From IMG/VR virus record IMGVR_UViG_3300049444_000130: a stretch of 64,000 nt of DNA; one strand, written 5' to 3'. Position numbers and translations under genes: made by a program. A model generated the notes under the pieces. It had not been told where the DNA came from and ran no database searches. It saw only the letters and a list, made by a program, of their open reading frames with translations. This DNA comes from a virus. Its lineage: Duplodnaviria; Heunggongvirae; Uroviricota; Caudoviricetes. Positions 1 to 64,000 of this stretch are shown in pieces (positions within the stretch are counted from its first letter, which is position 1; the number at the start of each line of letters is the position of its first letter).

Positions 1-20
1 CGACCCCGAGCGCCGCTGCC

Positions 21-308
21 ATGTCGCTCCAGGACATCAACCGCTACACCGAGCGCATCATTGCGGAAGGCGTGGTCAGTCCCCGCTTCACCGATCAGCG
101 GGGGGATACCGGGAAGCCCATCTACGGCACGCATGCCATCCATGTGTCGATGCTGGATACCGCCGACCGGGACTTCCTGGCGACGGCGTTGTTTCAGAAG
201 CTGGGCTTAACAACGGGGGATGCCGTAGCAATCCATGCCTTTCGCGAGGACGAACAGCGCCAAAACGATCCGAGCGTTAGCCCAGGAGTATCAGTGCCTT
301 CCGAGTGA
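21..308 (+). CDS. hypothetical phage protein; possible tail assembly chaperone (upstream of tape measure)
   Basis: ORF immediately 5' of the tape measure gene, overlapped by a second ORF in another frame (235..480). Position matches gpG/gpGT-type chaperones. No motif recognised. Confidence 0.3.
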   Translation: MSLQDINRYTERIIAEGVVSPRFTDQRGDTGKPIYGTHAIHVSMLDTADRDFLATALFQKLGLTTGDAVAIHAFREDEQRQNDPSVSPGVSVPSE

Positions 309-480
309 CATCCTTAAGCGGTGCACCCCTGGAGACCTGTTACTCAACATGTTGATCACCTGGCCTGAGATGGCGCAGGGACAGACACCACGGAGAGAAC
401 GAGAGCCAGATAGTCCCAGTTTCACGGCGCTGCTACGGGAGTTACGGCGCGAGCGCAACGGCCACCAGACGGAGTGCTGA
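235..480 (+). CDS. overlapping ORF (+1 frame relative to 21..308); possible frameshift extension of the chaperone, or a separate small gene
   Basis: Overlaps 21..308 by 74 nt and ends 2 nt before the tape measure start. Positional analogy only. Confidence 0.2.
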   Translation: MPFARTNSAKTIRALAQEYQCLPSDILKRCTPGDLLLNMLITWPEMAQGQTPRREREPDSPSFTALLRELRRERNGHQTEC

Positions 481-481
481 G

Positions 482-3352
482 ATGGCGGACACCAATCCCA
501 AGATTACGCTGACCGCGCAAGACAATATGAGCGGCCCGCTGACGTCGATTGCAGCGGCCCTCAAGCGCTTGGAGACGGCGGGGGAAGAGAACCTCGCGTG
601 GGTGACCCAGCTCGCCGCTGGCTTTGGCGGTCAGCAACACGCTGCCGAGCAACTCAGTACGGCGCTCCAGGGCGTGCAGACGCAACTGGCAGCGGGCATC
701 ACGGCACAGCAAGCCAACGCCACTGCGACCCAGGGGGCCACCCAGGCACTGACGCAACAAACGCAAGCGGTCACCGCCACCGGCACCGCCTGGCAGTCCA
801 TCCTCAGCATCGCTGGAGGCGTCGGCATTGCCACCAGTATCAGCGCCATTGTCGGGCAGCTCAAGCAGTTTGTCAGCGAATCCGTGCAGCTCGCCATCAA
901 AATGCAATCCCTCACCGCCTCGTTCACGGCGATTACCGGGAGTAGTGCAGGGGCACAGCATGCCCTCGGGTTTTTGCGCAGCATTGCCGTCCAGACCGGC
1001 ACAGATTTCCTGACCCTCGCCCAGTCCTTTAAGAACTTTGAGGCGGCGGCGCGAGGCACAGCCCTAGAAGGCACGAAGGCCGAAGGCGTGTTCCGGGCCG
1101 TAACCGGCGCCGCCCGCGTCATGGGCCTGTCGAGTGCCGATACGGGCCGGGCCTTGCTCGCCCTGGAACAGATGGTGTCCAAGGGCACCGTGTCCATGGA
1201 GGAATTACGCCGGCAGTTGGGCAATGCCCTTCCCGGCGCCTTCCAGATTGCGGCCCGGGCCATGGGGACGACGACCGAAGGGCTCCAGGCCATGCTGAAG
1301 CAGGGCATCGAGAGCAGTGACTTTGTGACCCGCTTTGGTGCGCAACTGCAACGAGAATTTGGCCCGCGCCTAGCTGATGCCGGACAAACCGCCGCCGCCA
1401 CCTTTGGGCGCCTGGGCAATGAAGTGCAAGCGATGGCCACCAGCGTGGGGGCAAGCATCCTGACGATCTTGACCCCGGTAGCCAGCTTTCTCGAAAGCAC
1501 GCTGCGGAAGGTGCGGGAGACGGAAGAAGCGGCGACCCGACGGGCCAAGGTCGGGCTGGGTGGGATTCCCGAAGGCGCCACCGAGCAGGAAGCGGCACGC
1601 CTCCTTGAGTTACAGAAAAACCAAGATGCGCTGCGGGGGCGCATGGCAGGGGGAGGGCCATTCCCGCAATTTCAAGGGCTCACGGCGCAGCGAGAACAGG
1701 CCGAACTGCTTGCCATTCAAGAACAGATCAAAGCCCGTAAAGACCTCAATGCCACGTTCGCGCGGGATGTCGCCCCCTCGCCCCTGCCCGGCATCCCCTT
1801 TGCCACCGAAGCCCGCAACATTCAGAAAGAAGTCCAGACGCTCCGGGACGAACTGAAAGCCACCAATGTGCAGGCGCAGGTCTTCCCCGCCATGAGTCAG
1901 GACAAGCTCCAGAACGCCAAAGATACGCTGAAAATCCTCGAAACCAGCCTGGAGAAATTGGCTGAGCAGATCGCCCAGACCAAAGACAAAGCGCCGGGCG
2001 TGATGGAGGATCAGAAAAAGCTCCTCGCCACCTTGAACCAGGAATATGCCGAGGCCCTCGCCAATGTGACCAAACTGGAGGCCGCCAAAGAAGCGGAAAC
2101 CGAGGCCACCCGCAAAGCCGCACGGGAAGCCGAGAAGGCCGCGCGCGACAACGAACGGCGGACGCGCGACAGTGCCAAGCTCCTAGCGGAGATGGGCATT
2201 GCGGCCCGACTGGCGGACACCACCGCGCAGGCCGGCGGCGATCCCGAGGCCATGCAGGCCGCCAAGAATGCGGCGGAAGAAGCCACGCTGCGGCAGACCA
2301 TTGCGGAGAAGGGGCTGGGCGCCGCGGTGGAAGAAACGGCGGTCGCCTTTCTCCGCCAGAAGCAAGCTGCCGACGACAGCGCCGCCACGATCGCGGTCAT
2401 GGTCAAGGAGCAACGCGACCGTATCCAAGAGCTGGCCAAGGACCTCGATATCTTTGGCCTCAACCTCGCCCCAGACCAGGAGAAAGCCCTGGCCTTCAGC
2501 AAGAAAATCCAGGATGCCCTCGCCGTCGCCCAGGCCCCCAAAGAGGAACGTCCAGAAACCCGCCTCCGTGCCCTGGCCGGGAAAGAAGGCATCCCCCTCA
2601 GCCCTGCCGATGAAGCGGGCTTGCGTCAGCTCACTCTCACGCTCCAAGAACAGGCCCAGGCACGGGAGATGGAGAAGATTACCACACAGCTCGCGAACAA
2701 TATGCGGCAGACGTTTGACACGCTCTGGGAGCAGGTCTTTACGGGGGGCGTGACGTCCTTTCAGCAGCTCGGGCAAGTGGTGGTGCAGTCGCTCCAGCGT
2801 ATGTTTGCGCAGCTCACGGCGCAAATCATGAACATGCTCCTCAATGCGGCGTCCGGGACCATGGACGAGAAGGGCGGCTGGGAGGGAGCGCTCGCACGGG
2901 GGATTGTCGGCGTGGGGCTGGCAGCCCTGGGGGGCAGTGACTTTGGCTCCGATATCCCGGGCATGACGAATGATCCCGCGGTGATTGGGGATCTCCAGAG
3001 CCAGATAAATCTCCTGGGCACCAGCTCAGCGGGGGGCAATGTTTTTCCAGGGTTGGGCACCATTCGCATGCTGGCCGGGGGCGGCATTGTGAATCGCCCA
3101 AGTTTCACCACTATTGCCGAGATGGGCCAGCCCGAGGCCGTGGTCCCCTTGAGTGGTGGGCGGTCGATTCCCGTGGAAATGCGGGGACAGCAGCCTGCCG
3201 GGAATCAGCCCATCGTCATTGAAATTCACAACGATTACACCAATGCCGTCAGCCCGAGTGCACTCAAAACTGGGAAGAAAGAGATTATTCAACATTTTAT
3301 AAGCGACTACAACGCCGATGGGCCGACCCGTCGTACCATCAAGGCAGGATGA
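482..3352 (+). CDS. phage tail tape measure protein (TP901-family core region)
   Basis: 956 aa, Ala/Gln-rich and coiled-coil. Contains the conserved tape-measure core segment ALEQMVSKGTVSMEELRRQLGNALPGAFQIAARAMGTTTEGLQAMLKQG. Many nested out-of-frame ORFs on both strands are GC artefacts. Confidence 0.9.
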   Translation: MADTNPKITLTAQDNMSGPLTSIAAALKRLETAGEENLAWVTQLAAGFGGQQHAAEQLSTALQGVQTQLAAGITAQQANATATQGATQALTQQTQAVTATGTAWQSILSIAGGVGIATSISAIVGQLKQFVSESVQLAIKMQSLTASFTAITGSSAGAQHALGFLRSIAVQTGTDFLTLAQSFKNFEAAARGTALEGTKAEGVFRAVTGAARVMGLSSADTGRALLALEQMVSKGTVSMEELRRQLGNALPGAFQIAARAMGTTTEGLQAMLKQGIESSDFVTRFGAQLQREFGPRLADAGQTAAATFGRLGNEVQAMATSVGASILTILTPVASFLESTLRKVRETEEAATRRAKVGLGGIPEGATEQEAARLLELQKNQDALRGRMAGGGPFPQFQGLTAQREQAELLAIQEQIKARKDLNATFARDVAPSPLPGIPFATEARNIQKEVQTLRDELKATNVQAQVFPAMSQDKLQNAKDTLKILETSLEKLAEQIAQTKDKAPGVMEDQKKLLATLNQEYAEALANVTKLEAAKEAETEATRKAAREAEKAARDNERRTRDSAKLLAEMGIAARLADTTAQAGGDPEAMQAAKNAAEEATLRQTIAEKGLGAAVEETAVAFLRQKQAADDSAATIAVMVKEQRDRIQELAKDLDIFGLNLAPDQEKALAFSKKIQDALAVAQAPKEERPETRLRALAGKEGIPLSPADEAGLRQLTLTLQEQAQAREMEKITTQLANNMRQTFDTLWEQVFTGGVTSFQQLGQVVVQSLQRMFAQLTAQIMNMLLNAASGTMDEKGGWEGALARGIVGVGLAALGGSDFGSDIPGMTNDPAVIGDLQSQINLLGTSSAGGNVFPGLGTIRMLAGGGIVNRPSFTTIAEMGQPEAVVPLSGGRSIPVEMRGQQPAGNQPIVIEIHNDYTNAVSPSALKTGKKEIIQHFISDYNADGPTRRTIKAG

Positions 3353-3355: not shown

Positions 3356-5158
3356 GTGAACCTGACCGAGCACCGTCACTTTGCCGATGAGCTGTATCTG
3401 AGTTTGCAGCGCTGCGAATCCGCCTATAACGTCCCCATCCTGCAATGGGACGCCACCACGGCCACGCAGCTCACCGGCATAGACGACGCCAGCGTGCACG
3501 AGCAGTGGAACGATACCCTCGTGGGCGCCGACGCCATCCGCCTAGGCTCCCGCCTCGCCGCCGTGCACGCCCTGGCCTTGCGCAGCATGCTACTCCCGGT
3601 CACCCTCCCCCGGGTCACGCTCCACGCCCTCACGGGCTTGCTGGGGTTGACGCTGGGCCAGGTGACGACCGTGCAACAACTGGTGCCGTTGGTCCCCAGC
3701 TATCGGCACCGGCTGACGCTGGCCCCGCCGACCCAGCTCCCGAGTATCAGTGCACAAATCGGGCATCTGCAGAACGTGTACGCGCTCTATGGCGGGATCA
3801 AGGGGGACAGCTTTACCCTCCAGAACAACAGCGCCTATCTCCGTCTGACCACCCAGCTTATCGGCGCGGGCAGCCGGGTCGAAAGTACGGGCACGTTCCC
3901 CCGGGCGCTGACGCTCCTCACGACGGGCACGCCCCCCGAGGCGCACCGGATCGCCGATGCGGCGGCAGGGGTGTGGTATGTCTCCCCGGATGGCACCGGC
4001 AGCCTGCTCATCGATACCGTGCCCCCAGCGGGTGTGAGTCTGAACGTGGGTACGGGCCTGACGTTGCGCAGTATTCCCGGCCCGCGCTACCGCCTCGGCG
4101 TGGGCACGGAGGGCAGCCTGGAACTGCCGGTCGTCAGCACCGCACCGGCGGGGCTCCTCGAAGTCGCAGCCCTGCGGGATGCGACGGGCACCACCTGGTA
4201 CCTGTGGATGGACGGCGACACGCTGACCCTGGATGTGACCCTGCCCCCGCCCGCGCTCGTGCCCCGGGAGGAGCCCGCGTTGCGCTGGGGGACGGGACGG
4301 ATCTGGCTGGCCGACGTCACGGACACGCCGGCGCCCATCCCCCTCTTTCTGACCCAGGGGGCGCCCAATATTGGCCCGGCGCCACTGGAGGTGTCCAGTC
4401 GCGTCGTGGGGCTCACGCTCACGGGGGAGAATCATCTGCTGGCGACCGACGCCTATCGCCTGGCCAGTGGCGCCGTGCGGAGTAATTTCCACGCCGCCCA
4501 CCAGGCCCTCACCGTGACCCTCCAGCTCGAAGTGGACCCGGCGCGGGAGGCCGCCGACCTCGCCGCCTATCTCGATCAGCGCCTCCTGGCCCTGGAGTGG
4601 CAGTGCCTGCAGGAGGCGGTGACCATCGTCCTGGTGACCGCGGGCACGCCGCCGCTGTGGCATCAGGTGACCGACAGCGGCGGGGGCACCTGGTATCTCG
4701 GGGTCGATGTCCTGGGAGAACTCACGGTGAGCGACACGTCCCCAGGCGGCAGTGGGCTGGTCGTCGGCACGGGGCTCCAGCTCCTGGCCCTCGACGGCTG
4801 GCGCTATCGCCTGGGGGTGGATGGGTTGGGACAGTATCTCCTGACCCAAACCACGTTGGTCGGCCCCACGCCGCCGCGCACGGAGATGGGTGCGCTCCGC
4901 GACCCCAGTGGCGGCACCTGGTACGTGTGGCCGGATGGGTTTGGGGGCGTGGAAGTCTCCGCCACACCCGTCCTGCCCTACTGGCACCACGGCTTTGCCT
5001 GGCTGTTTCCTCGGCTGCAATGGCGCGCCCTGGTGCGGTCGACGCAAGCGCAAATGGATATTCTCGAACTTACGGGCACGGTCGAGGAGACGCCGCCCGA
5101 GGAGCCCGTCGTGCTCGATGTGTGGAATGCCCAACCGGGCTATGTCCAACTGGCGTAG
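3356..5158 (+). CDS. phage tail protein with internal repeats (distal tail / tail-associated)
   Basis: GTG start 1 nt after the tape measure stop (TGA..GTG). 600 aa with four repeats of a GGTWY(L/V)W-DG...V(T/S) motif and two RYRLGV(G/D) segments. Location fits a Dit/Tal-like gene. Confidence 0.5.
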   Translation: MNLTEHRHFADELYLSLQRCESAYNVPILQWDATTATQLTGIDDASVHEQWNDTLVGADAIRLGSRLAAVHALALRSMLLPVTLPRVTLHALTGLLGLTLGQVTTVQQLVPLVPSYRHRLTLAPPTQLPSISAQIGHLQNVYALYGGIKGDSFTLQNNSAYLRLTTQLIGAGSRVESTGTFPRALTLLTTGTPPEAHRIADAAAGVWYVSPDGTGSLLIDTVPPAGVSLNVGTGLTLRSIPGPRYRLGVGTEGSLELPVVSTAPAGLLEVAALRDATGTTWYLWMDGDTLTLDVTLPPPALVPREEPALRWGTGRIWLADVTDTPAPIPLFLTQGAPNIGPAPLEVSSRVVGLTLTGENHLLATDAYRLASGAVRSNFHAAHQALTVTLQLEVDPAREAADLAAYLDQRLLALEWQCLQEAVTIVLVTAGTPPLWHQVTDSGGGTWYLGVDVLGELTVSDTSPGGSGLVVGTGLQLLALDGWRYRLGVDGLGQYLLTQTTLVGPTPPRTEMGALRDPSGGTWYVWPDGFGGVEVSATPVLPYWHHGFAWLFPRLQWRALVRSTQAQMDILELTGTVEETPPEEPVVLDVWNAQPGYVQLA

Positions 5159-5508
5159 ACAGGAGCGGTGTGACCACTCCGCCAGCTCAAGCTTGGCGGC
5201 TTCTTTTGGAAGTGCCGTACTTGAACAGCGGCTTCGTGCAGCACGCATGAGTTGACAACCTCTACGTTACGCTGCACAGGCACGATCCATGCCCCACACC
5301 GCTGGCCCGACACTGACGTGGCAGCCTCAAAGGGTCGCGGATACTAGGAGTATAGCATGGTAGGACGTTTTGAAACAGTAAGCAAAGCCTAAACAGATGA
5401 CGAAAAACCTTGAACAAAGTCTGTCGAGGAAGAAAAAACTGGTGACCTTTCAGGCCAACCTTTCATTCCTCTGCCAGATACATCGGGCAGTCCCCTGAAA
5501 GGAGTTTT

Positions 5509-5880
5509 ATGGAAGGTCACGCCCACGACCGCATCACCATTAACATCATGACGCCGATGGAGGCGCAACAACTCATGGACACCTTTGCGGACATTCAAGC
5601 CAAACTCGCCCATCTCCAAGCCAATTCAAGCGAACTCAATGCCGGCATGGAACACATTGCCAGCGGGCTCGTGATGCTCCAGATGCAAGTCACGGAACAG
5701 ACGGCCCTCGTGCAACAACTGCGGGACCAACTGGCCGGGGGAACGGCCATCACGCAAGAACAAGTCGATGCGCTCGGCGACCAAGCCGACACGATCCAAG
5801 CCACGCTCAGTGAGGCGCTGGGCCATGAGCAGGCCATCGAGGACCTCTTACACCCGGAGGAGCCCCCCCCGGCTCCGTAA
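5509..5880 (+). CDS. hypothetical coiled-coil protein
   Basis: 123 aa with heptad-rich Q/L/A sequence. Preceded by a 350-bp AT-richer intergenic gap (5159..5508). Confidence 0.4.
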   Translation: MEGHAHDRITINIMTPMEAQQLMDTFADIQAKLAHLQANSSELNAGMEHIASGLVMLQMQVTEQTALVQQLRDQLAGGTAITQEQVDALGDQADTIQATLSEALGHEQAIEDLLHPEEPPPAP

Positions 5881-5891
5881 AGGACACTGCG

Positions 5892-7604
5892 ATGCATCCC
5901 TGGCACCCTCTCCGGCACCCCTGGCTATGCCTGCTGCTCCTGCTCCTGGTCTGCCTTGTGCCTCGTCATGGGACGAGCGCGACCAAGACGGGCCTGATGC
6001 AAGAGGACGCCGGCATTGTCAACGCCCTCAAGTACGGGGCGACCACGACGGCCCGCAATACCACGACGCTCACGGCGGCAGTCGCGGCGATTGGGGCAAC
6101 CCCGAAAACCCTGATGCTCTCTGCGGGCGCCTGGACGCTGACCGCCAATCTCACCATGCCGCCGACGTTGACGCTGTGGGTGCCCCAGGGGAGCACGTTA
6201 GATATCGACAGCGGGCATACGCTCACGCACCAGGGGCCGCTCAAGGTGGACGGCTGCAACCATTTTACGGGGGCCGGGACGATCCTGCTCCCGGCCATTG
6301 CGGAACTCAACGTATGTTGGTTTGGCGCCACGGGGCAACTCGACGTGGACGATACCGCCGCGTTTCAGCGGGCCGCGCGTGCCCTGAACATGACGCCCAC
6401 GGGGGGCCATGCCACGGGCGTGGGCTGTTGTGCGCCGGTCTTCCGCATTCCTGCGGGCTCGTACAAACTCACCGCGCCGATCCAATTTACGCATGGGGTG
6501 TCCATTAAAGGCCACGGCCCCGCCAATACGCTGCTGGTCGCCTTTAATCTGGCCGGGAATACGTTTGAAACGGGGGGCATGAGCGGGACCGCAGCCCGCT
6601 TTGCGGTCGAGGACCTGACCTTCCTAGCGCTCACACCGAAAACGGCAGGGGCCGCCATTCTCGCGAGTACCCCCAATCCGCTCGACGATTCGCAAGTGCA
6701 ACTCTTCATTCACAATGTCTCGTGCCGGGGGCATTTCAACTGCTTTGATCTGCAGAATAGCGCCTATGCCCATATTGTCGACAATATGCTGGAAGACGTG
6801 CGCGGCACGGGCATCGCTATTGCCACCTCCGGCAATCCTGATGCCGGGGACAACGTCATTGCCCATAACGTCATTGCCGGGGCGGCGGGGTCGGTCGGCA
6901 TTAGCGTGCGCACGGCAGGCCAGCGGATCGTCAACAATAAAATCCTGGCCTTTAGTGTGGGCATTAGTGTCGATCCCATCTCCACGACGGTGAATGACAG
7001 CGACATTCTCATTGCCAATAATAGCATCGAACTCCAGGGCACCTTTGGGATTCTCGTCCAAACCAGTGCCCTGGGGGGGCATCTCTACCATCTCCAGATT
7101 ACCAGCAATCAGTTGGCGCTGCTCCAAGGGGGCAGCCCCTCCGCCTCGATTGCCCTGTCCGGGCTGATTTCCTACACGACGATTGCCAATAACCTGATCA
7201 CGATGGCCGCCCAGGAGGGGACCTATGCCATTCTGCTCTCCTCGAATATTCGCGGCGAGACGCCAAGCGGCTGGGCCATTACCGGCAACCATATTGCGGC
7301 CCCGAACCTGACGACGGCCATTGGCATTCAGATCCCCCAGATTACCCCCCTGGAGTATCGCGGGATGGTGATGGGGAACTATGTCACCGGGCTCACAAAG
7401 CCGTATAGCGGCAACACCGCCGCGTTTATCGGGGGGACGTTTACGAGTGCCACCCTCACTGGGTTTGGAGGGCCGGGGTCCATCGTCTATTGCGCGGGCT
7501 GCGGGGTCACCAGCGGGGCCAATAATACCTGTGCGGGCTCAGGGCCGGGTGCCATGGCGATGCTCACGGAAGCCGGGTGGAAGTGTTTCAATAATCAGAA
7601 CTAG
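5892..7604 (+). CDS. secreted right-handed beta-helix (pectate-lyase-like) protein; tailspike/depolymerase-like
   Basis: N-terminal signal peptide. NVCWFGATG motif typical of pectate-lyase-3 domains. Repeated (I/V)xNN(S/K)I beta-helix rungs. The N-terminal ~100 aa are paralogous to those of the 13156..15384 protein. Confidence 0.6.
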   Translation: MHPWHPLRHPWLCLLLLLLVCLVPRHGTSATKTGLMQEDAGIVNALKYGATTTARNTTTLTAAVAAIGATPKTLMLSAGAWTLTANLTMPPTLTLWVPQGSTLDIDSGHTLTHQGPLKVDGCNHFTGAGTILLPAIAELNVCWFGATGQLDVDDTAAFQRAARALNMTPTGGHATGVGCCAPVFRIPAGSYKLTAPIQFTHGVSIKGHGPANTLLVAFNLAGNTFETGGMSGTAARFAVEDLTFLALTPKTAGAAILASTPNPLDDSQVQLFIHNVSCRGHFNCFDLQNSAYAHIVDNMLEDVRGTGIAIATSGNPDAGDNVIAHNVIAGAAGSVGISVRTAGQRIVNNKILAFSVGISVDPISTTVNDSDILIANNSIELQGTFGILVQTSALGGHLYHLQITSNQLALLQGGSPSASIALSGLISYTTIANNLITMAAQEGTYAILLSSNIRGETPSGWAITGNHIAAPNLTTAIGIQIPQITPLEYRGMVMGNYVTGLTKPYSGNTAAFIGGTFTSATLTGFGGPGSIVYCAGCGVTSGANNTCAGSGPGAMAMLTEAGWKCFNNQN

Positions 7605-7670
7605 GGGAACCGTCTGGCCTATTTTGCTCTCGGGGGCGCGTTACAACTGTCGTTTAATCCACACTATCCC

Positions 7671-8709: not shown

Positions 8710-8710
8710 C

Positions 8711-15384: not shown

Positions 15385-15395
15385 GGAGACGTTCT

Positions 15396-52582: not shown

Positions 52583-52584
52583 CG

Positions 52585-56042: not shown

Positions 56043-56063
56043 GAATGTGAGAAGGGAGGAACC

Positions 56064-56288
56064 ATGACGTTTGAAGGCAAACACTTTACGCCAGACGAAT
56101 GGGACGTCTCGCCCGAGCGCAAGAAGCTGATGAGACAGCTCTGGGGGGCTCGGGTGGGCATGGGGGTGTGCTGGACTGCTATGAGCGGGCTCCTGCTGCT
56201 CGGCCCACGGCCCTGGAAGGAAAAGATCGCCTTGTGGATACTGGGAACCGTCTTGATGGTGTTTCCGTGGGGAGGGTACCGTCGATGA
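56064..56288 (+). CDS. small membrane protein
   Basis: 74 aa with two TM helices. Confidence 0.35.
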   Translation: MTFEGKHFTPDEWDVSPERKKLMRQLWGARVGMGVCWTAMSGLLLLGPRPWKEKIALWILGTVLMVFPWGGYRR

Positions 56289-56545
56289 CCACCCGCGAAT
56301 TGCTTGTTGACATGATCCAAGACCCACGCGTGCTCACCGAACGCGAAATTGACACGCTCTGGCGGCTCATCAACAATCCGTTTCAAGCGTTTGCGCTCCT
56401 TGCCCTCGTGAATGATGCTGACATCCGGGCCATTCATTGGGTGGCCCAGGCGCTTATCTCTTGTCCTGAGTTGCGCCCCTTTGCCCAGGGCTTGCAGGAT
56501 GGCATCCAACGGTATCTGCAAGCGCGCGCTGGGGGCGCTTCTTAG
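56285..56545 (+). CDS. small hypothetical protein
   Basis: ATGA overlap with the upstream gene. 86 aa. Confidence 0.3.
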   Translation: MTTRELLVDMIQDPRVLTEREIDTLWRLINNPFQAFALLALVNDADIRAIHWVAQALISCPELRPFAQGLQDGIQRYLQARAGGAS

Positions 56546-56557
56546 CGAAAGGCATGT

Positions 56558-57823
56558 ATGGGTACGCAACGACACAGGGTTGGGTGGGTGGTCTTGTTCC
56601 TCTTGGTGCCTTCCCTCGTCTCCGCCGATCTCTTCGACACGGCGCGCCAGGCCATCCGCACCGATGTAGGTCGGGCCGATAGCAGTGGTGTGAGCGTGCG
56701 CGGCGGGGCGGCGATCACCTCGGGCGTCACGGCGACCAGCGTGCCGCTCTTGCGGGGACAGCTCACCACCGGCGGCGGCTGCGGCGCGTTCTCGTTTGCG
56801 ACCAGCCTCACGCAAGTTTTCGAGGAAGTGCCGGAGTTACTCGAGGCCCTCGCCCAACAACTCGCGAATAACCTCCCCATGTTGGTGTTGTCGTATGCCT
56901 GCCCGACGTGCGTCGATCTGGTGAAGCATGTGCAAGCCCTCTCGAATGTGCTCGTGAACGCCCGCTTTGCCCAGTGCCAGGCGATGACCGCGGCGGCGCA
57001 GTATGGGGGCATGCGATTACGCGGTGGGGAAATTAGCCAGTGCCTGTCCGATGAGGTGGCCGCCGGCCATGGGATCAGCGCCGCCTTACGGACCTGCAAT
57101 GGCGACGTGACCGACGTGCGCTCGCCGACGGGCCGCCGGGCGCCCCGGGTCGAGGTGCTGGCCGAGACCCTGGACGCGGCAGGGGCCTCGCCTGAAACGC
57201 GCACCCTGGCCAAGAGCCTGCTGGGGGAACTCACGATGAGCGCCAACGGGGGGCAGCTTGGGACGCAGCAAGACCGGCCCAGTGCTGGGATGCTCGCGCG
57301 CTATGAGGCGAACCGGCTGGCCGCCGACACGGCATTACGCACCGCGATCGAGGAGCTGAAGACGACGGGCCAGGTGTCTGATGCGACCTTACGCGCGGTC
57401 TCAGTGCCCGGCCAACCGCTCCCCCGGGCGGCCCTGGATGCCCTCGTCGCCCTCCAGCAGGACCCCACGCGCTACGAGACGCTCCTCGGCAAGCTGAGTA
57501 CCGGGCTGGCCGTGACCCAGCTCACCTGGGAATGTGACGATCTCAAGAGCCAGCTCGCCGGATCAATCGAGAGCAATCAGGAGCTGACAGACGAGCAACG
57601 GCGCCTCCTCGAACGACGCTTAGAAGCCTTGGAGCGGGATCTGAAGCAGGTCATTGCCAAGAAAGACATAGTTGAAAAACACCTGCAACCCGCCTTGGAC
57701 GCGCTCTTGCAGGAGTACCAGGCGGTGCAGAGTGTGGCAACCCAAGCCGGATTCCGGGCGCCGGCGAAAGTGGGACCTGTGATGCCCTATCGGACACAGG
57801 GGCCAGGCGGATACGGGCAATAA
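56558..57823 (+). CDS. traH: TraH-like T4SS protein
   Basis: Signal peptide. GGGCGAFSFATSL parallels F TraH AGCGGIDAYLGSFSF. C-terminal coiled coil. Confidence 0.5.
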   Translation: MGTQRHRVGWVVLFLLVPSLVSADLFDTARQAIRTDVGRADSSGVSVRGGAAITSGVTATSVPLLRGQLTTGGGCGAFSFATSLTQVFEEVPELLEALAQQLANNLPMLVLSYACPTCVDLVKHVQALSNVLVNARFAQCQAMTAAAQYGGMRLRGGEISQCLSDEVAAGHGISAALRTCNGDVTDVRSPTGRRAPRVEVLAETLDAAGASPETRTLAKSLLGELTMSANGGQLGTQQDRPSAGMLARYEANRLAADTALRTAIEELKTTGQVSDATLRAVSVPGQPLPRAALDALVALQQDPTRYETLLGKLSTGLAVTQLTWECDDLKSQLAGSIESNQELTDEQRRLLERRLEALERDLKQVIAKKDIVEKHLQPALDALLQEYQAVQSVATQAGFRAPAKVGPVMPYRTQGPGGYGQ

Positions 57824-57864
57824 CACGTTATATTTGAAGCATTTATGTTGAATTGAGTGGGGGA

Positions 57865-57942
57865 AAATGGTAGAATAACGGGGTAGGGAGGAGCTGTAAC
57901 TCCTCCCGCCCCTAAACACACGCCTCTGAGAAGGAGAAGCGC
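57865..57942 (+). repeat. conserved HNH-cassette leader: AT-rich box + 13-bp-stem hairpin GGGGTAGGGAGGAG..CTCCTCCCGCCCC + GAAGGAG RBS (copy 1)
   Basis: About 80% identical to 61641..61720. Confidence 0.7.
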
Positions 57943-58563
57943 ATGTCTGACGAGCACCATACCACAGATCCCGACAGTTCCCAGAGACAAAAGATCAGCA
58001 AGCGTCTCGAATATGGGCCAAGAAGAAAGAAATATGGAGAGGGGAAATATGTCGCCCCTCGTAGTGATTTGAAACCAGGCGCAATTACTCGAAGAGAATG
58101 GTTGCGTTTTATGAGTTATGTTGAGGAAGGAAATACCTGTCTCTGCACTCCTGAAATTCCTCATCGTCATTGGGTATGGATTGGTGTTCGAACGAGAGAA
58201 GGCTATGGGAGATTTAGCTGGAGAGGACGAAACTATCTGGCCCATCGGTTTGCCTATATTGCTTTACGTAGCGTCATCATAGATGGTCTGGAGCCAGACC
58301 ATCTATGCCGAATGACGTGCTGTTGTAATCCAGATTGTATTGACATCGTATCGCCGCAAGTCAATAAATTGCGCGGCAAAGGCATTGCGGCGATGTGTGC
58401 ACGAAAAACACATTGTCTTAAGGGGCATCTTTTAGAAGGGCAAAACCTTCGTGCATGCAAACTCAAAAAAGGGTGGCGCGCCTGTCGTATATGCTTTAAC
58501 GAATCCCATCGAATAGCCAAACACCACAAAAAACAGGCGAAGGAGGGGCTATCGACTTTTTAA
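57943..58563 (+). CDS. HNH homing endonuclease (HNH_3 family)
   Basis: WVWIGVRTREGYGRFSWRGRNYLAHRFAYIAL...GLEPDHLCRMTCCCNPDCIDIVSPQVN. About 45% GC. Paralogue of 61715..62512. Confidence 0.75.
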   Translation: MSDEHHTTDPDSSQRQKISKRLEYGPRRKKYGEGKYVAPRSDLKPGAITRREWLRFMSYVEEGNTCLCTPEIPHRHWVWIGVRTREGYGRFSWRGRNYLAHRFAYIALRSVIIDGLEPDHLCRMTCCCNPDCIDIVSPQVNKLRGKGIAAMCARKTHCLKGHLLEGQNLRACKLKKGWRACRICFNESHRIAKHHKKQAKEGLSTF

Positions 58564-58565
58564 CG

Positions 58566-60026
58566 ATGAGTCTCCCGGAAGCAAGCTATCTCTTCTTGGG
58601 TTTGGCTTTGCAGAGCATTGTTCGTGCCTCTTCATTGCGCCACATCCCGCGTGTCATGGTTCTCATATGGACCCTCGTAATGTTGTGGCGCGCAGGTGGG
58701 CGCGCAGGGGGGTATCGCGCGGTGGTCGGCTATGTGGGGACGTCGCTGGTGCTCTGTGTGCTCTTCTGGCCCGAGGCGGTCCCGTATGGCCGGCTTCTGG
58801 TCCAGACAACGGCCCCAGAGCAAGTCGCCTCCTATGCGGCCAGTCAAGATCCGGGTGCGGAGATCGTGACCGCGGCAGACGCGGGCATGGTCCCAGAGAT
58901 GCTCACGCAACCGGTGCCCATTCCCCCCGGGCTGCGGCTGCTCCTCCGGGCCGTGACCCAAACCCCGCTGGCCCTCGCCCGGGGAATCAATCTGCAAGCC
59001 CATCGCCTGTTCGCCAATCTCATGCCGCTCGCGTGGTTTCTGGATGTCAGGCTGCCCGCTGACGCGACGGCGGCGATTGCCGATTTTGTCCACGGGTGCT
59101 ACATCCCCACGCTCCTCGAAATGCTCAATGGCCAGCCCGGGCGCACCAGCGAGGACCTCCTGCCCTTTGGCGACTCCCCCATGCGGCAACAGTTGGCCCT
59201 CCATTCCGTCATCCCCGGCGCCCAGAGTGGCTTGACCATGATCAGCGGCCCCAATGCGCGGAATCTCACGCCGTGTCATGTGTACCTCAGTGGGTTGGAA
59301 CTGAATGCCCAGCGCTGGCTCAGTGAGCTGCGCTCTCCGCGGGGGGTGCCGTACCTCGAACTCTTTGCCACGGAGCTGGGCCTCGACGCCCCCACGCAAG
59401 CGGCGATCCTGCTCTACCGGGAAATGCTGCACGCCGCGGGCCCGGGCGTGCCAGCTCCCAGCCTGGCGGCGCAGTATGCCACGTTACGCGGGGGGAGCGT
59501 GCTGGGCAGTGTGGTGGAAGGGACGGCCCTGGGAGCCGTCGGGGGCTGGGCTGGGGCAGGTTTTGGCGCCCTGACGGGGTTGGTGCGTGGCGTCAATGGC
59601 GAATGGCAGCGCAGCCTGGAGGGCCTGACCTGGCTGGTGCGGGTGGCCATGGCGCTGGTGTGGTATAGCCCGTATATTTTAGGCATGGTGAACATGGTCC
59701 TCGTGGGGCTGTTCCCCTTTCTGCTGCTCTGGGCGCTCCTGCCGGGGACGCAATTCGAGCCGTTGGCGCATTATTTCATGGCGCTGCTGTTTACGAGTTC
59801 GGCGCCCTTGTGGTTGGCGCTGGTGGACCAGGCTGCGCGCCTCGGCGCGCAGCAACCCCCTGCGGTCGAGGGCGCCATGGGGGCGGTCTGGAGCGTGTTT
59901 ATCACCACGGGGTTGTGGAGTGCCTCACTCACAGCGCTGGGGCTGCTGCTGATCCCATTGGTGTTAGCAATTTTGTACTTTGCTGCCTTTCGTGCGATTG
60001 GGCATTTGTGGCGAGGAGGAGTGTAG
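58566..60026 (+). CDS. polytopic membrane protein, TraG N-terminal-domain-like (mating-pair stabilisation)
   Basis: 486 aa with multiple TM helices flanking a periplasmic domain. Position after traH, as in F. Confidence 0.35.
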   Translation: MSLPEASYLFLGLALQSIVRASSLRHIPRVMVLIWTLVMLWRAGGRAGGYRAVVGYVGTSLVLCVLFWPEAVPYGRLLVQTTAPEQVASYAASQDPGAEIVTAADAGMVPEMLTQPVPIPPGLRLLLRAVTQTPLALARGINLQAHRLFANLMPLAWFLDVRLPADATAAIADFVHGCYIPTLLEMLNGQPGRTSEDLLPFGDSPMRQQLALHSVIPGAQSGLTMISGPNARNLTPCHVYLSGLELNAQRWLSELRSPRGVPYLELFATELGLDAPTQAAILLYREMLHAAGPGVPAPSLAAQYATLRGGSVLGSVVEGTALGAVGGWAGAGFGALTGLVRGVNGEWQRSLEGLTWLVRVAMALVWYSPYILGMVNMVLVGLFPFLLLWALLPGTQFEPLAHYFMALLFTSSAPLWLALVDQAARLGAQQPPAVEGAMGAVWSVFITTGLWSASLTALGLLLIPLVLAILYFAAFRAIGHLWRGGV

Positions 60027-60027
60027 G

Positions 60028-60219
60028 ATGCATCCTGTGGTGGCGAAGGTGGTGTTATGCAGTCCGATGCTGGCCCTCTTTGGGCTGGTGCTCGGGCTCT
60101 CGTGTCTCTTTCTGCGGACGTGCCCGGCCTGTAAGCGGCGGATTGCCCGCACGGCGACGAAGTGTCATTGGTGTCATACGTTGCAACCAGTGAGGGCACA
60201 GCGGGATCATGCCTTTTAA
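60028..60219 (+). CDS. small membrane protein with CxxC..CxxC zinc ribbon
   Basis: MHPVVAKVVLCSPMLALFGLVLGLSCLFLRTCPACKRRIARTATKCHWCH. Confidence 0.3.
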   Translation: MHPVVAKVVLCSPMLALFGLVLGLSCLFLRTCPACKRRIARTATKCHWCHTLQPVRAQRDHAF

Positions 60220-61519
60220 CCGTTGGCGAGGGCTCGTGCTCGGGCTTCTCCTAGCGCCGGGCTGCTGGGCACACGCGGGATCGGTGGAATTGCACTGGGA
60301 GTATGACCTCGCCTGGCAACGTGATACCACGTATCGGCTGCGCATCGTCACGCTCCAGGGCGGACGGCCCACGGCCAGCGAGCGCACCCTCGACCCCTTC
60401 ACCCCGCAGCAGTGTGCGCAGTCGCCTGACCCGGCCCGGACCCCCGACACGCTCTGTGGGACGGTGTGCCTGGAGCCGGGCGACTACACGCTGAGCCTCA
60501 CAGCGGTGCACCGAAGGCAGCAGAGTGCCCCAAGTAATCTGCTCGACGTGGACCTGACATCGAGCACCTCCTGTGTCCCAGGTGGGAGCGCCGCTCCGGT
60601 CTCTGCATCTCCCCCTGCGCCTCCCCGTCCGACCTCGTCAGCGGGGTCGGCAGGCGGCGGCCTGGCGGTGGGCGGGGCCGCGGCGGCGCTTCTAGCGGCG
60701 CAGCAACAGATACCCGGGCTGTTCGGGCTCCCGAATCTTGGCTGTGTGCAGTGGCTGCCCGTCGAACCGTGCGTCTGCCCCCCCTTCCTCCCGTGCACGC
60801 GCGTGACGTATATGGAACCGGCCTATATTGTCGAGGTCGTGCCCAAGCCAGGGGAGACCGTGGTGCCCCTCCTGGGCGGGTTGCTGCGGGAGGCGCTGGC
60901 GACGGTCGGCAGCCCGGCGCTCGGGGGCGGCGGCGCGGCAAACACGTCGGGGCCAACGAATCTCCATTACAACGAGGTGCATGTGTATGATTTTCCGAAC
61001 ATCTTCGGGGGCCCCTGTACGGGCTGTCTGCCCGGTGGTGGGCTCGCGCTGCACTATGCCAGTGAGCTGGACGCGGTGAGTTGGCGCACGGCGGCCATCA
61101 CGCCCACGCCCGTCGATCTCCTTCAGCAGATAGGGGTGTGGGGGCCGCTCTACCCCCGGGGAGGGAAAGTCATCCACGGGAGTGGGGTCATTGCCGGCGC
61201 ACTGGCCGCCGTGCGCGGCATGGATATCGCGCACCAGCCGATTGGCAGCCCGCCCCATGTGGATGCCCATGTGGTGCCGCTGCCGGCCCTCGGGCGGGCG
61301 GGCTGCCTGCAACTGGCCTATCCGAAGCAACTGCCCTGCATGGACCCGGGGGGGCCTCCGCCCCTCTGGGAAACCGGGACCACGAGCCTGAATGGCCGCT
61401 ATCTCTATATCGTCTGGCAGCGGCGCACGTGCTGTGTCCAGGTGCCGACCTGTGGCATTACCCTGCCAGGGATTGGGGGCTATGGGCAAAACCTGTGCGC
61501 GTTGTCCCTCGTACCGTAA
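60209..61519 (+). CDS. traU: TraU-family T4SS protein with N-terminal extension
   Basis: CVCPPFLP...TYMEPAYIVEVV parallels F TraU ICPAPPP...INYWEP. EVHVYDFPNIFGGP parallels HVHWYKYPLTYWLN. GCLPGGGLALHYASELD parallels GCLEGGDMDIAYLSEID. GRYLYIVWQRRTCC parallels FGYLMWRKRNCV. Confidence 0.7.
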   Translation: MPFNRWRGLVLGLLLAPGCWAHAGSVELHWEYDLAWQRDTTYRLRIVTLQGGRPTASERTLDPFTPQQCAQSPDPARTPDTLCGTVCLEPGDYTLSLTAVHRRQQSAPSNLLDVDLTSSTSCVPGGSAAPVSASPPAPPRPTSSAGSAGGGLAVGGAAAALLAAQQQIPGLFGLPNLGCVQWLPVEPCVCPPFLPCTRVTYMEPAYIVEVVPKPGETVVPLLGGLLREALATVGSPALGGGGAANTSGPTNLHYNEVHVYDFPNIFGGPCTGCLPGGGLALHYASELDAVSWRTAAITPTPVDLLQQIGVWGPLYPRGGKVIHGSGVIAGALAAVRGMDIAHQPIGSPPHVDAHVVPLPALGRAGCLQLAYPKQLPCMDPGGPPPLWETGTTSLNGRYLYIVWQRRTCCVQVPTCGITLPGIGGYGQNLCALSLVP

Positions 61520-61714: not shown

Positions 61715-62512
61715 ATGCGCATGTCTAAAAGAAGACTTATCACAGATCCCTATTTCTCACAAACTGTTCTGTCTGGGAAAGGGCGGTTGCGTAGCCCAAA
61801 CAGAGCGGCGCCTGGGCAAGGAATGTACAAAGCACCGCGGAGCGACTTGCGGCCGGGCGCTGTCACACGACGGGAGTGGCTACGTTTTATGAGCTACATA
61901 CAAGAAGGGGAACAGTGTCTGTGTACTCCGGGCGTTTTTCATCGCCACTGGATATGGGGAGGCTGGCGGACCAAGCAGGGTTATGGGAGCTTCAGGTGGC
62001 GAGGAAGAATGTATCTCGCCCACCGTTTTGCGTGTATCGCTATGGGAAGGTCCATACCAAACGGACAAGAACCTGACCACCTCTGCCGGGTTACATATTG
62101 TTGTAACCCGGCTTGTATCGACGTCGTTCTTCAATCTGTCAACATTCTACGAGGCAGTGGTATCTGTGCGTGCCATGCACGCCAAACACATTGCAAATGG
62201 GGACATCTTTTAGAGGGAGACAATCTTCTTCCTGCCCCATGGATAGCGGAAGGGCATCGCATATGTCGTGCGTGTGCAAAAAAATCTAAGAGCGAACAAT
62301 GGGCACACAGAAGGGCGACTGTTGGCTCAGGTTCAATATGTCTTGTCATCGCTCAAAAAACGCATTGTAAGCGTGGGCACCTCTTCACAGAAGAGAATCT
62401 TGATCCTTACCTTCTCAAGCATGGTATTCGCAAGTGCCGTCGATGTAGAAATCTACAAATACAACGAGCCAAACAACGCAAAAAGCTCCAAGAAATGGAG
62501 GGCTCTGTATGA
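61715..62512 (+). CDS. HNH homing endonuclease (HNH_3 family), paralogue of 57943..58563
   Basis: HWIWGGWRTKQGYGSFRWRGRMYLAHRFACIAMGRSIPNGQEPDHLCRVTYCCNPACIDVV. Low GC. The stop overlaps the next ATG. Confidence 0.75.
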   Translation: MRMSKRRLITDPYFSQTVLSGKGRLRSPNRAAPGQGMYKAPRSDLRPGAVTRREWLRFMSYIQEGEQCLCTPGVFHRHWIWGGWRTKQGYGSFRWRGRMYLAHRFACIAMGRSIPNGQEPDHLCRVTYCCNPACIDVVLQSVNILRGSGICACHARQTHCKWGHLLEGDNLLPAPWIAEGHRICRACAKKSKSEQWAHRRATVGSGSICLVIAQKTHCKRGHLFTEENLDPYLLKHGIRKCRRCRNLQIQRAKQRKKLQEMEGSV

Positions 62513-62835
62513 AGTGGCTCTGTATGTTCCTCGCCTTTCCCTTCTTGGTCTCTGCCCAAGAAATGCGCTTTCTTGATTGTGGACAGGTCAATTTTTTTGG
62601 AGAAGCTTGTCCTTCACAATCACCGCCGCGCCTTCTCCCACCCCCGGCCCCAGAGCCCCTATTCCCTCGTGAGTCAATGGCGCCTGACACTCCGAGTCTT
62701 ATGATGAACCTCTTGGAGCAACCAACCCCAGAAAATGCACAAAAGTTCCTGGCCTGGCAGGCGCAGCGCACGACGCGCATCCAGGAGGTGCAGCAGCTCC
62801 TCCACACCCTGACCCTGCAGAGGAAAGCGCCGTAG
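62509..62835 (+). CDS. secreted hypothetical protein (tra operon; TrbC/TraW-like position)
   Basis: Signal peptide MKWLCMFLAFPFLVSAQ. Confidence 0.35.
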   Translation: MKWLCMFLAFPFLVSAQEMRFLDCGQVNFFGEACPSQSPPRLLPPPAPEPLFPRESMAPDTPSLMMNLLEQPTPENAQKFLAWQAQRTTRIQEVQQLLHTLTLQRKAP

Positions 62836-62837
62836 CC

Positions 62838-63230
62838 ATGAGCACCAGACACGAGAAAAGCACGCCGTATCGGTGGGCATCCTGGCAGCAGTACCTCATG
62901 GGCCATGCCCTTCTCCCGCCCGACGCAGCCCAGCGGGACTACACCATGTTGCGGGTCCGGCCCAGCCTGCGACCGGCCTTCTTTGTGGTGCTCGATCTCC
63001 TGAGTGCCCGGGTGCATCTCGAAGATCGGGCACTCCCCCTCCTCGCAGACACACCACCCGGGCCAGGGCTGGCGGAGGCGCAGGCCGCCTGGCTCGCGTG
63101 GCAGCAGTGGACGCGGCGCCTGGCCGCGTATCTCGACCGCCTCGCCACAGGCCGGGAGGGTACGCTCCCCCCGGTCCCTGACGTGCTGACGACGCTGCTG
63201 GCAGACGGGAAGGGCGAGGATGGCGCGTAA
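62838..63230 (+). CDS. hypothetical protein
   Basis: 130 aa. Confidence 0.3.
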   Translation: MSTRHEKSTPYRWASWQQYLMGHALLPPDAAQRDYTMLRVRPSLRPAFFVVLDLLSARVHLEDRALPLLADTPPGPGLAEAQAAWLAWQQWTRRLAAYLDRLATGREGTLPPVPDVLTTLLADGKGEDGA

Positions 63231-64000
63231 GTGGCCGGTCAGGGAGGCGGCCCTGCTCACCGTGGCGGGGAGTGCCTGTCTCGGGGTAGTCCTGGCGCCG
63301 ACAAGTCCGTACCTCGCGCCCGAGCTGCGCCCCCTCGCCCTCACGCTCAGTACCGCGTGGGTCGTGTGGCGGCTGCTGGCCCTCGACCGGGTGGTGGCGC
63401 AGCGCCGCGCCTGGCACCACGCCACGGCGTGGGTCGTGACACCCGCCGCGCTGGCGTGCGCCACCCTCTCCCCCTGGTGGCCGGACCAGCTGGGCCGTGA
63501 GACGCCTACCCACGAAGGGTTGCTGTTGGGACGAGCGTTCCCCTGGCACGCGGGCCACACGCAGGTCTTGGAAACCGCCCTGGCCACGGACGGCGCCTTA
63601 CCCATTGCCGAGGACAACCGGGGGGGCCATCCTGCGCTCCATGCCGTGGGGACGGATACCGAGCAGGCCCTGGTCGTCCCCTGGAGTGAGTTGGGGGGGC
63701 ATGTGCTGGTCACGGGCACGACCCGGAGCGGCAAGACGCGGCTGCTCGAAGTGCTGGCGTCGGAAGCGATCCGAGGACCCGGCGCCGTGGTCGTGCTTGA
63801 TCCCAAGGGCGAGCGGGAGTTGCTGGCCCGCTGTGCCGCCGAGGCCCACCGCCAGGGCCGCCCCTTTGCCCTGATCACCCCCGCCTTTCCCGAGCAGTCT
63901 GCCACGCTCAACGTGCTCGACACTGCCACGACGCCGGCGGAAGTGTCCGCCCGCATCCGGGCACTGATGCCGAGCGGTGGGGCCCGGGGAAGCGATCCGT
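63220..64000 (+). CDS. traD: type IV coupling protein (TraD/VirD4-like), 5' partial; runs off the window
   Basis: Not in the ORF track because no stop is reached. Two N-terminal TM helices, then Walker A VLVTGTTRSGKT and VVVLDPKGE. Confidence 0.6.
   Translation, partial: MARKWPVREAALLTVAGSACLGVVLAPTSPYLAPELRPLALTLSTAWVVWRLLALDRVVAQRRAWHHATAWVVTPAALACATLSPWWPDQLGRETPTHEGLLLGRAFPWHAGHTQVLETALATDGALPIAEDNRGGHPALHAVGTDTEQALVVPWSELGGHVLVTGTTRSGKTRLLEVLASEAIRGPGAVVVLDPKGERELLARCAAEAHRQGRPFALITPAFPEQSATLNVLDTATTPAEVSARIRALMPSGGARGSDP

Follow-up and report, generated by a model that had tools for sequence, protein, structure and literature searches.

A temperate lambda-like siphovirus adjoining a deep-branching F/SXT-like conjugative module: probably two separable elements, with a candidate tyrosine-recombinase relaxase gene beside traD

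The DNA analysed here, hereafter called the window, is a stretch of 64,000 nucleotides (positions 1-64000, G+C ~63%) filed in IMG/VR as a virus of the Caudoviricetes (IMGVR_UViG_3300049444_000130), and it was read together with 2.76 kb of DNA beyond its left end (contig L001) and 3.6 kb beyond its right end (contig L062). The gene set, obtained with a self-trained gene call and profile searches, is organised in three blocks. Positions 1-43982 belong to a temperate lambda-like siphovirus that extends leftwards beyond the window, and positions 43997 to 64000 and beyond to a conjugative module. The core picture proposed in an earlier note on this DNA, a temperate phage abutting an F-like type IV secretion system (T4SS) with a TraD-type coupling protein, is retained here, except for the degraded relaxase that was part of it. 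We consider it probable, though by no means certain, that the two halves are separable elements, i.e. a tandem of a phage and an integrative and conjugative element (ICE), or a prophage integrated in a conjugative plasmid or ICE. Megablast of the phage half and of the T4SS half against deposited phages and plasmids gave no match, nor did an exact-match search of IMG/VR with the window end or single-protein scans of IMG/VR with the conjugation protein TraC and with the tail protein J. No tRNA gene was detected anywhere in the window, which extends to its whole length the earlier remark that none follows the integrase gene.

The two halves meet at the 3' end of the phage integrase gene (int). 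The gap between the int stop codon (43982) and the first open reading frame (ORF) of the T4SS side (43997) is 14 nt, i.e. the spacing of ~0 bp expected of a tandem, and a terminator-like hairpin (43970-43991) overlaps the stop codon at this meeting point. The same junction was found in 11 of 11 contigs carrying int and in 9 of 9 contigs carrying the gene at 44306-44632, wherever these contigs reach, and at least 10 samples are represented among the contigs that bear it. Many samples yielded JGI and Logan contigs that match the window at 99.8-100% identity. The adjacency described in the earlier note is thus no assembly artefact, being identical in independent contigs. An assembly chimera was rejected, since two assembly pipelines (JGI and Logan), applied to different samples, span the junction at 100% identity; nothing was found in its favour and we regard it as practically excluded.

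The assignment of the left part to a phage rests on its tail, early and switch genes, the head and terminase genes lying outside the window. The features of a lambdoid siphovirus were found together: a tape measure protein, a J-type tail tip, a cI/cro switch with its operators, an integrase and a replication initiator with iterons. The tail and late region occupies the + strand (21-23730) and includes the tail tape measure protein TMP (482-3352, +, 956 aa; phrog_2335, E=2.5e-43; PF20155 TMP_3), a J-like central tail fibre (10640-13156, +; phrog_31, E=9e-51) and beta-helix/Laminin_G fibre proteins. The early region lies on the - strand (23936-42313), with methyltransferases, a Bro-N domain protein (41363-42094, -; PF02498, E=4e-21) and a lambda O-like/DnaD-like replication initiator (31543-32547, -; phrog_345, E=1.7e-20). 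A tandem-repeat search revealed about four 15-bp iterons CCGACTTCGGTTGAT inside the initiator gene (32091-32146), where the phage origin is likely to be placed. At the lysogeny switch, a cro-like helix-turn-helix (HTH) gene (42095-42313, -, 72 aa) and a cI-like one (42457-42927, +, 156 aa), both with an HTH Pfam match on the JGI gene calls, flank four palindromic operators of the form TTGCA-N5-TGCAA (42327-42457) that occur nowhere else in the 64 kb. The switch is followed by a tyrosine integrase (43110-43982, +, 290 aa; PF00589, E=3.9e-28; ~30% identity to lambdoid phage integrases), so that the tail and late region, early region, switch and integrase read from the sequence in the earlier note were all recovered. 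A 12-bp unit CGTCTTGCGTGC, present in ~2.4 tandem copies immediately 5' of the integrase start codon (43071-43099), may be a recombinase-binding or regulatory site. The phage resembles lambda, N15, HK75 and D3 in its TMP, its K/I/J-type tail tip genes, its cI/cro pair with multiple palindromic operators, its O-like initiator with internal iterons and its integrase, ~30% identical to those of HK75 and D3. Unlike them, it has a J protein that is at best 24-27% identical to that of any deposited phage, early genes that converge on the late genes, and int placed 3' of cI.

On the other side of the junction, the T4SS operon is carried by the + strand. Its conserved part begins with a pilin-like gene (49260-49745, with 49260 as true start), followed by TraL (49756-50010, weak profile match), TraE (50004-50603; NCBIfam 31 bits against a cut-off of 109), a TraK-like protein with a signal peptide (50628-51365), TraB/VirB10 (51362-52582; NCBIfam 68 bits against 504) and a TraV-like lipoprotein with an LTAC lipobox (52585-53025), and this segment (49260-53025) is syntenic at 50-68% identity with the relatives L009 and L083. 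TraC, the VirB4 ATPase (53027-55576, 849 aa), matches the F-type TraC model TIGR02746 with 251 bits against a cut-off of 567, as well as PF19044, and is 24-27% identical to plasmid TraC proteins. The genes at 55569-61519, kept in L009, L083, L101 and L102, comprise a 157-aa membrane protein, ORFs of 74, 86 and 63 aa, a TraH/TIGR03755-like protein (56558-57823, weak match), a conserved 486-aa protein (58566-60026) and TraU (60209-61519; PF06834, E=2e-18, 67.2 bits, above the Pfam cut-off). The series TraL, E, K, B, V, C, H and U named in the earlier note is therefore backed by profile matches for TraL (weakly), TraE, TraB, TraC and TraU, and is less sure for TraK, TraV and TraH, the last of which has a weak match, whereas TraK and TraV are recognised only from where they lie, from a signal peptide or lipobox and from their conservation among relatives. 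Two small conserved genes (62509-63230, +, 108 and 130 aa) precede an ORF starting at 63220 with the Walker A motif GTTRSGKT, i.e. the coupling protein announced by that note; its first 260 codons lie in the window (63220-64000, +) and the frame runs off the window end. The full protein, found on L062 (100% identical over the overlap), has 607 aa, continues to ~65043 and matches best SXT_TraD (TIGR03743, 295 bits against a cut-off of 366), and also PF10412, PF12696 and PF02534. TraN, TraF, TraW and TraG were not recognised among the window genes by profile searches.

Because all the NCBIfam scores are well below the curated cut-offs, we consider this T4SS as a distant relative of the F/SXT type and not as a strict member. 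It shares traL-E-K-B-V, traC and traU, and a TraD that is best described by SXT_TraD, with the SXT/R391 ICEs and the IncA/IncC plasmids, and differs from them by its scores under the cut-offs, its divergent TraC, the four unrecognised Tra proteins and the absence of a MobH relaxase. About 64 metagenomic relatives of TraC were collected (39-65% identity), a single one of which is named, a protein from a Candidatus Tectimicrobiota metagenome-assembled genome (MAG). In one-genome-per-species data the nearest TraC proteins (38-40%) belong to Ca. Entotheonella chromosomes and to Aggregatilineales and Tectimicrobiota MAGs, and the more distant T4SS relatives in Ca. Entotheonella chromosomes adjoin an integrase of their own. 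One TraC relative (P0023) is 1220 aa long and contains a LAGLIDADG endonuclease domain, which indicates an intein in the VirB4 ATPase of this T4SS family.

The two closest relatives with known gene context share the gene order of the window between the pilin-like gene and traD: L083 (TraC 65%, on a 40.6 kb contig) and, equally, L009 (TraC 63%, on a 64.7 kb contig that begins at the pilin-like gene). Both carry a TraI_2/MobH relaxase (PF07514; NF041494, 156 bits) and a 209-aa gene immediately 5' of traD, like SXT, and TraI_2 is also found near the T4SS in three distant relatives (L018, L023 and L031). In the SXT gene order, traI adjoins traD. No TraI_2 homologue was found in the window by tblastn, and the MobH relaxase that marks the SXT/R391-IncC type is lacking: the small genes at 62509-63230 are directly followed by traD, and the MobH block of L009 and L083 would sit between them. 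The same arrangement without MobH exists in L010/L101 (54%) and in the 79% relatives L041 and L042, and is thus a feature of the lineage and not a recent decay. The earlier note had recognised a degraded remnant as the only relaxase signal; the relatives point to MobH beside traD, and not to MobA/MobL, as the expected type.

A different candidate is found just past the window end. Downstream of traD on L062, a 158-aa gene is followed, ~1 kb past traD, by a 290-aa tyrosine-recombinase gene on the - strand (L062 3395-4267, i.e. ~66085-66957 in window numbering), whose product combines PF12834 (E=3e-15) and PF12835 (E=1e-15) and possesses the R-K-H-R-H-Y set that is invariant in the family (R142, K168, H227, R230, H278 and Y287). 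The PF12835 gene also adjoins traD, in either orientation, in the 79-95% relatives L039, L040, L043, L047 and L048, and is not present in the 0.5 kb visible past traD in L009. PF12835 is the signature used by Burrus and colleagues for MpsA, the tyrosine-recombinase-type atypical relaxase of SGI1 (PMC10484663), and MpsA, MobK and TcpM are described members of this relaxase class (PMC6414798, PMC8152469). The protein shares with MpsA (SGI1), MobK (pIGRK) and TcpM (pCW3) the match to PF12835 and the full tyrosine-recombinase catalytic set; unlike these proteins, described as devoid of a core-binding domain, it has an N-terminal PF12834 domain. Moreover, MpsA works with a separate MpsB, and the candidate of the window lineage would serve a self-transmissible F-like element and not a mobilisable island. 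Its best homologue in PLSDB (51%) is located on a 35 kb Pleionea plasmid, 2 nt 5' of the gene of a type IV coupling protein (T4CP), and many other homologues are found on plasmids of 4-10 kb that are typed as non-mobilizable and have no recognised relaxase.

On these comparisons of sequence and gene neighbourhood, we propose with moderate confidence that the PF12835 gene encodes the MpsA/MobK-type relaxase of the element, which would functionally replace MobH. The core modules of an ICE would then be distributed as follows: the T4SS and the T4CP are present in the window and the relaxase candidate, the PF12835 protein, is found outside it only. The degraded gene reported earlier would consequently not be the sole relaxase signal of this DNA. 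Several observations speak against this assignment. Some of the plasmid homologues have no adjacent T4CP and one is near a MobQ gene; the gene is inverted among close relatives (L062 versus L047 and L043) with the orientation of the flanking DNA kept; and the family counts more than 3000 homologues at >50% identity, mostly on contigs of 1-3 kb, which suggests a multi-copy or self-mobile unit. Given the change of orientation, the abundance on short contigs and the plasmids without a T4CP, the gene could be an integrase, a resolvase or an independent insert. The DNA past the PF12835 gene and traD (L062 4268-4935; L047 2485-3507; L009 from 16793 onward) contains short patches conserved at 80-85%; it was called as a 340-aa ORF whose translation, rich in Arg, Ser, Gly and Pro, is implausible, and it may be a non-coding element such as an origin of transfer (oriT) or an RNA. 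Rfam gave no match on the window and the extension contigs, including this stretch.

These doubts bear on another explanation of the T4SS side, according to which it is the decaying remnant of an ICE that lost its MobH module and its relaxase, is no longer self-transmissible and has a prophage as neighbour by chance, the PF12835 gene being an unrelated integrase, resolvase or small mobile insert. We consider this distinctly unlikely. The missing MobH block, two endonuclease genes inserted in the operon (described below), the inversion and short-contig abundance of the PF12835 gene, and the four Tra proteins not recognised in the window are what such a decay would leave. However, the T4SS ORFs are intact and each conserved one is full length compared with the relatives; the arrangement in which the small genes run into traD without MobH is shared at 54% (L010/L101) and 79% (L041 and L042); the PF12835 gene retains its catalytic residues and its traD neighbourhood over 64-79% divergence; and the remaining T4SS genes, together with a relaxase, may lie past the window.

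The proposed relaxase remnant itself is an ORF of 97 codons (48766-49059, +) that contains a G-rich tract and was also listed by the JGI gene caller. It has no Pfam match at E<=10 and no PDB match, and the claim is not sustained. Its best local alignment to a genuine MobQ relaxase (from a plasmid, L087) covers residues 1-31 with a score of 39, a value also attained by 4.7% of shuffles as well as 58 of the 622 other stop-to-stop segments in the window, and a Trp aligns where the catalytic Tyr of MobQ would stand. With a codon table trained on the genes of the window, codons 1-20 score +0.61 per codon and codons 21-97 score -0.31 per codon. The ORF is probably non-coding, except for its first ~20-30 codons at most, as judged from codon usage and similarity. 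It could still be a genuine vestige, of ~30 codons at most, of the 5' end of a MOBQ (MobA/MobL) relaxase gene, which we hold to be very unlikely. Residues 1-14 (MALYHVNASVITKG) do align from position 1 with a real MobQ start (MAIFHLHVKNISRG; pairwise E=0.02), the first 20 codons have a gene-like usage, and the N-terminal motif occurs once in the window and 42 loci, with a pattern that was written after seeing the sequence. Against the vestige stand the lack of any Pfam or PDB match, the chance-level alignment score with its Trp in the place of Tyr, the absence of relaxase similarity in all the downstream frames, and the relatives: none of those examined has a MobQ-like start or gene at this position, and the relaxase of the family is MobH.

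The earlier note had also suggested resequencing the G-tract to look for a frameshift that would restore a relaxase. Contigs from five samples all have the identical tract, which is therefore no sequencing error; furthermore, the pilin-like gene starts only ~200 nt further on and none of the frames in between resembles a relaxase, so that a frameshift could not restore one. A relaxase restored by a frameshift at the tract was rejected on these two grounds, constancy in five samples and lack of downstream relaxase similarity. In the same region, an exact 14-nt repeat AGGGGGAAGTGATG occurs at 48900-48913 and 49040-49053, 140 nt apart; each copy terminates a frame in RGK-stop and overlaps an ATG, and the frame 48911-49051 would encode a Trp-rich hydrophobic peptide of 46 aa.

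Whether the phage and the conjugative module form one element or two was weighed mainly from their relatives. The preferred reading, two separable elements, starts from what the sequences show directly: which genes are present, that the junction exists, that relatives carry one half without the other, and that MobH is missing. The closest phage relative is a 53,391-bp IMG/VR contig, about the size expected for the phage alone, with J at 64% and collinear tail genes at 47-70% identity; no TraC was detected on it, neither by an alignment-based TraC scan of IMG/VR nor by a comparison of the homologue tables of J and TraC. In these tables, the long contigs with TraC relatives and the contigs with J relatives do not overlap. 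Conversely, the 6 kb located 5' of the pilin-like gene in L083 have no Pfam match to integrase or tail genes and no homologue of the integrase or tail genes of the window, where int sits 5.3 kb 5' of the pilin-like gene. The halves are also regulated separately. The cI operators are restricted to 42327-42457, and none is present near the T4SS promoter, where a phage operator would have suggested regulatory coupling; the T4SS side has a different regulator, a second HTH_3 gene (47220-47498, +; PF01381, E=1e-13) which is the first gene of its operon, follows an AT-rich divergent control region (46868-47219) and has homologues preceding the T4SS of both L101 and L102. The tight junction with its terminator-like hairpin, and the more distant T4SS relatives that adjoin an integrase of their own in Ca. 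Entotheonella chromosomes, point in the same direction.

The competing view is a single hybrid replicon or obligate co-transfer unit, i.e. a conjugative phage-plasmid of ~93 kb or a one-piece phage-ICE, which would use the phage O-like origin for its maintenance and the T4SS with the tyrosine-recombinase relaxase for its transfer, with packaging in virions as a possibility. The observations that follow weigh against separability and were set in favour of the hybrid where they bear on it. The junction is invariant in at least 10 samples, and no empty site, circular phage junction or other neighbour was seen in the contigs bearing int or the gene at 44306-44632. Neither attachment (att) repeats nor an excised circle were found in the sequence at hand; a search for direct repeats between the junction and the available ends gave only 10-11-mers of chance level, in line with the earlier note, which recognised no att site after int. 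No chromosomal housekeeping gene was seen in ~70 kb. Cluster tables place the J protein and the PF12835 protein on one contig of 92,804 bp, which is about the sum expected for the two elements alone and therefore fits a single replicon too. Endonuclease genes of the phage-style HNH type, paralogous to each other, lie within the T4SS operon, and tetranucleotide usage, homogeneous throughout the window, fails to separate the halves and is uninformative as a boundary detector. Finally, two TraC relatives at 51-54% carry the full syntenic T4SS on contigs filed whole as viral genomes in IMG/VR: L101 (UViG_3300026067_000001, 141.6 kb) and L102 (UViG_3300010398_001198, 122.7 kb). In one of these viral-filed relatives, the 9 kb located 5' of the T4SS contain many small ORFs, an HNH-like motif and a DPPY motif of methylase type (read from translations), a run reminiscent of the early region of a phage; the ~30 kb of L101 and L102 that were read showed no phage structural genes.

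Opposed to these points are the closest phage and T4SS relatives, found without each other, the two independent regulatory switches, the absence of partition genes among the window genes scanned, and the near absence of TraC homologues from 50,697 deposited phage genomes. The window resembles phage-plasmids such as P1, N15 and SSU5 in that phage structural and replication genes share a contig with plasmid-like transfer genes, and differs from them by the last two of these features. To our knowledge, described phage-plasmids rarely carry a full mating-pair apparatus. We therefore judge the hybrid improbable, and its fullest version, a replicon or obligate co-transfer unit of ~93 kb spreading both by virions and by conjugation with an MpsA-like tyrosine recombinase in place of MobH, slightly more so. 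Among the three scenarios of the earlier note, the comparisons rank two separable elements (in tandem or nested) first, a fused phage-plasmid second and repurposing of the T4SS by the phage last.

According to the favoured scenario of two separable elements, the phage would be a prophage extending from the left of the window to ~43.98 kb and would replicate from the iterons inside its O-like initiator gene; lysogeny would be held by the cI-like repressor acting on the four operators, and the tyrosine integrase encoded 3' of cI would ensure integration and excision. The second element, an ICE or plasmid, would run from 43.997 kb to past the right end with its own HTH regulator and divergent promoter region, and would be an uncharacterised deep-branching relative of F and SXT, with an F-like mating-pair formation T4SS and an SXT-type TraD. 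The tandem may have arisen through a site-specific integration event at the hairpin next to int or close to it, and the PF12835 tyrosine recombinase would act as an atypical relaxase of the MpsA/MobK type.

The remaining genes of the phage late region lie on the + strand unless indicated. The segment 21-480 holds the 3' part of a tail assembly chaperone gene that starts left of the window (complete on L001 at 2598-3068, 156 aa, directly 5' of TMP) and an overlapping ORF (235-480) that may be its frameshift extension; L001 also contains a Phage_tube_2 tail tube gene along with small connector-like genes. After TMP come distal tail or baseplate-like genes (3356-10258) encoding proteins of 600, 123, 570 (beta-helix), 171, 141 and 267 aa, with Beta_helix and tail-spike PHROG matches, all of which are conserved in the phage relative L090 (47-59%). 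Amid this operon, the - strand carries a 220-aa gene (8711-9373) with a ribbon-helix-helix-like N-terminus and hydrophobic segments, which is 59% conserved in L090 and is for this reason probably a real moron. An NlpC/P60 K-like tail tip protein (10245-10643, weak NLPC_P60 match) precedes J. Downstream of J lie tail fibre or receptor-binding genes (13156-20757; 742, 168, 176, 319, 496 and 618 aa; Laminin_G_3, NosD and Beta_helix on JGI gene calls) and small late genes (20808-23730) that are probably the lysis cassette, given an XhlA/hemolysin-like match to phrog_937 on 22027-22401 and, for the rest, their position.

The early region contains, on the - strand, three accessory-type genes: an SPFH/Band 7 protein (24427-25239), a 122-aa protein of the Acb2/Tad1-hairpin family (25104-25472; Acb2_Tad1_hairpin Pfam domain; phrog_2428, E=8e-28), whose domain suggests a phage sponge against the cyclic-nucleotide signals of CBASS/Thoeris-type defences, and an HNH endonuclease (26268-26906). 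A block rich in methyltransferases (33716-40731, -; three to four DNA methyltransferases) is composed of a D12-like enzyme (33716-34852), a 437-aa protein (36010-37323), an HNH_3 gene (37341-37937), a C5 methyltransferase (38761-39741) and an N6/N4 methyltransferase (39931-40731). Within it, an open frame of 806 codons (36010-38430, -) is methyltransferase-like in both halves and is overlapped in another frame by the HNH_3 gene; it lies on a low-GC island (37-39 kb), is split by the JGI caller into the 437-aa and HNH genes, and may be a methylase gene invaded by an endonuclease.

On the T4SS side, eight small ORFs without assigned function (43997-46867, -, from gene calls) are transcribed away from the T4SS control region and most likely belong to the conjugative element; the relative L101/L010 likewise has - strand genes 5' of its HTH gene. 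Pfam searches gave nothing useful on these ORFs and on the flank genes of the relatives. An intergenic module of 24-28 nt, which includes the palindrome GGCTCCCCCGGGGGTG ahead of a ribosome-binding site and start codon, is repeated 5' of several of them (45187-45210, 46278-46328 and 46560-46612), which suggests duplicated expression signals or paralogous cassettes. Between the HTH regulator and the pilin-like gene, a YAcAr/SLOG-family protein is encoded (47965-48363, +; PF10686, 27.7 bits, just under the cut-off). The two inserts of the operon are an HNH-type endonuclease gene in a low-GC stretch (57943-58563, +; 59% identical to the second) and an HNH_3 endonuclease gene (61715-62512, +; PF13392, E=1.4e-4); both are missing from L009 and L083, where the operon is uninterrupted at these sites. 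Both paralogues are Cys-rich, lie in low-GC stretches and are weakly related to the phage HNH protein (26268-26906); it is unusual for a conjugation operon to contain free-standing homing endonucleases. Strain-level variation within the operon is illustrated by L002 (sample 3300046615): its alignment to the window has 33 differences, namely 2 substitutions plus 31 gap positions that form two indel blocks, running from ~56361 to ~58627, with one more at 60047.

The arrangement as such is of a known kind, since phage-ICE tandems have already been described, with 612 curated cases in seven phyla and putative tandems in ~3.5% of the genomes screened (Huang et al., Sci Adv 2026, PMC13651849), and nested Phage::ICE and ICE::Phage forms are also recognised (PMC13651849). 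As in these tandems, a prophage directly adjoins a T4SS-bearing element and a phage tyrosine integrase stands at the junction. Unlike them, the present case concerns an uncultured soil bacterium as host and a deep-branching F/SXT-like T4SS with no recognised canonical relaxase, and no att sites, empty site or chromosomal flank were recognised for it in the window and its short extensions. New here are the T4SS lineage, uncharacterised and known from metagenomes and MAGs only, the phage itself, and an apparent exchange of MobH for a tyrosine recombinase beside traD.

If the tandem is true, it would be another case of prophage-ICE accretion and the first noted in this deep-branching F/SXT-like lineage, which to date has been met in metagenomes and MAGs only (Tectimicrobiota/Entotheonella, Chloroflexota and others). 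If the hybrid were true, the relatives on viral-filed contigs of 123-142 kb would be a hint of repeated links between this T4SS lineage and phage genomes. A true conjugative phage-plasmid would attract wider interest, but is less likely than the tandem. The relaxase swap is the more useful lead: next to traD, closely related conjugative modules have MobH in some cases and a PF12835 tyrosine recombinase in others. If the PF12835 protein is indeed a relaxase, enzymes of the MpsA/MobK type would serve self-transmissible elements of the Gram-negative type, beyond hitchhiking islands and small plasmids, and many plasmids now considered as non-mobilizable would be mis-typed.

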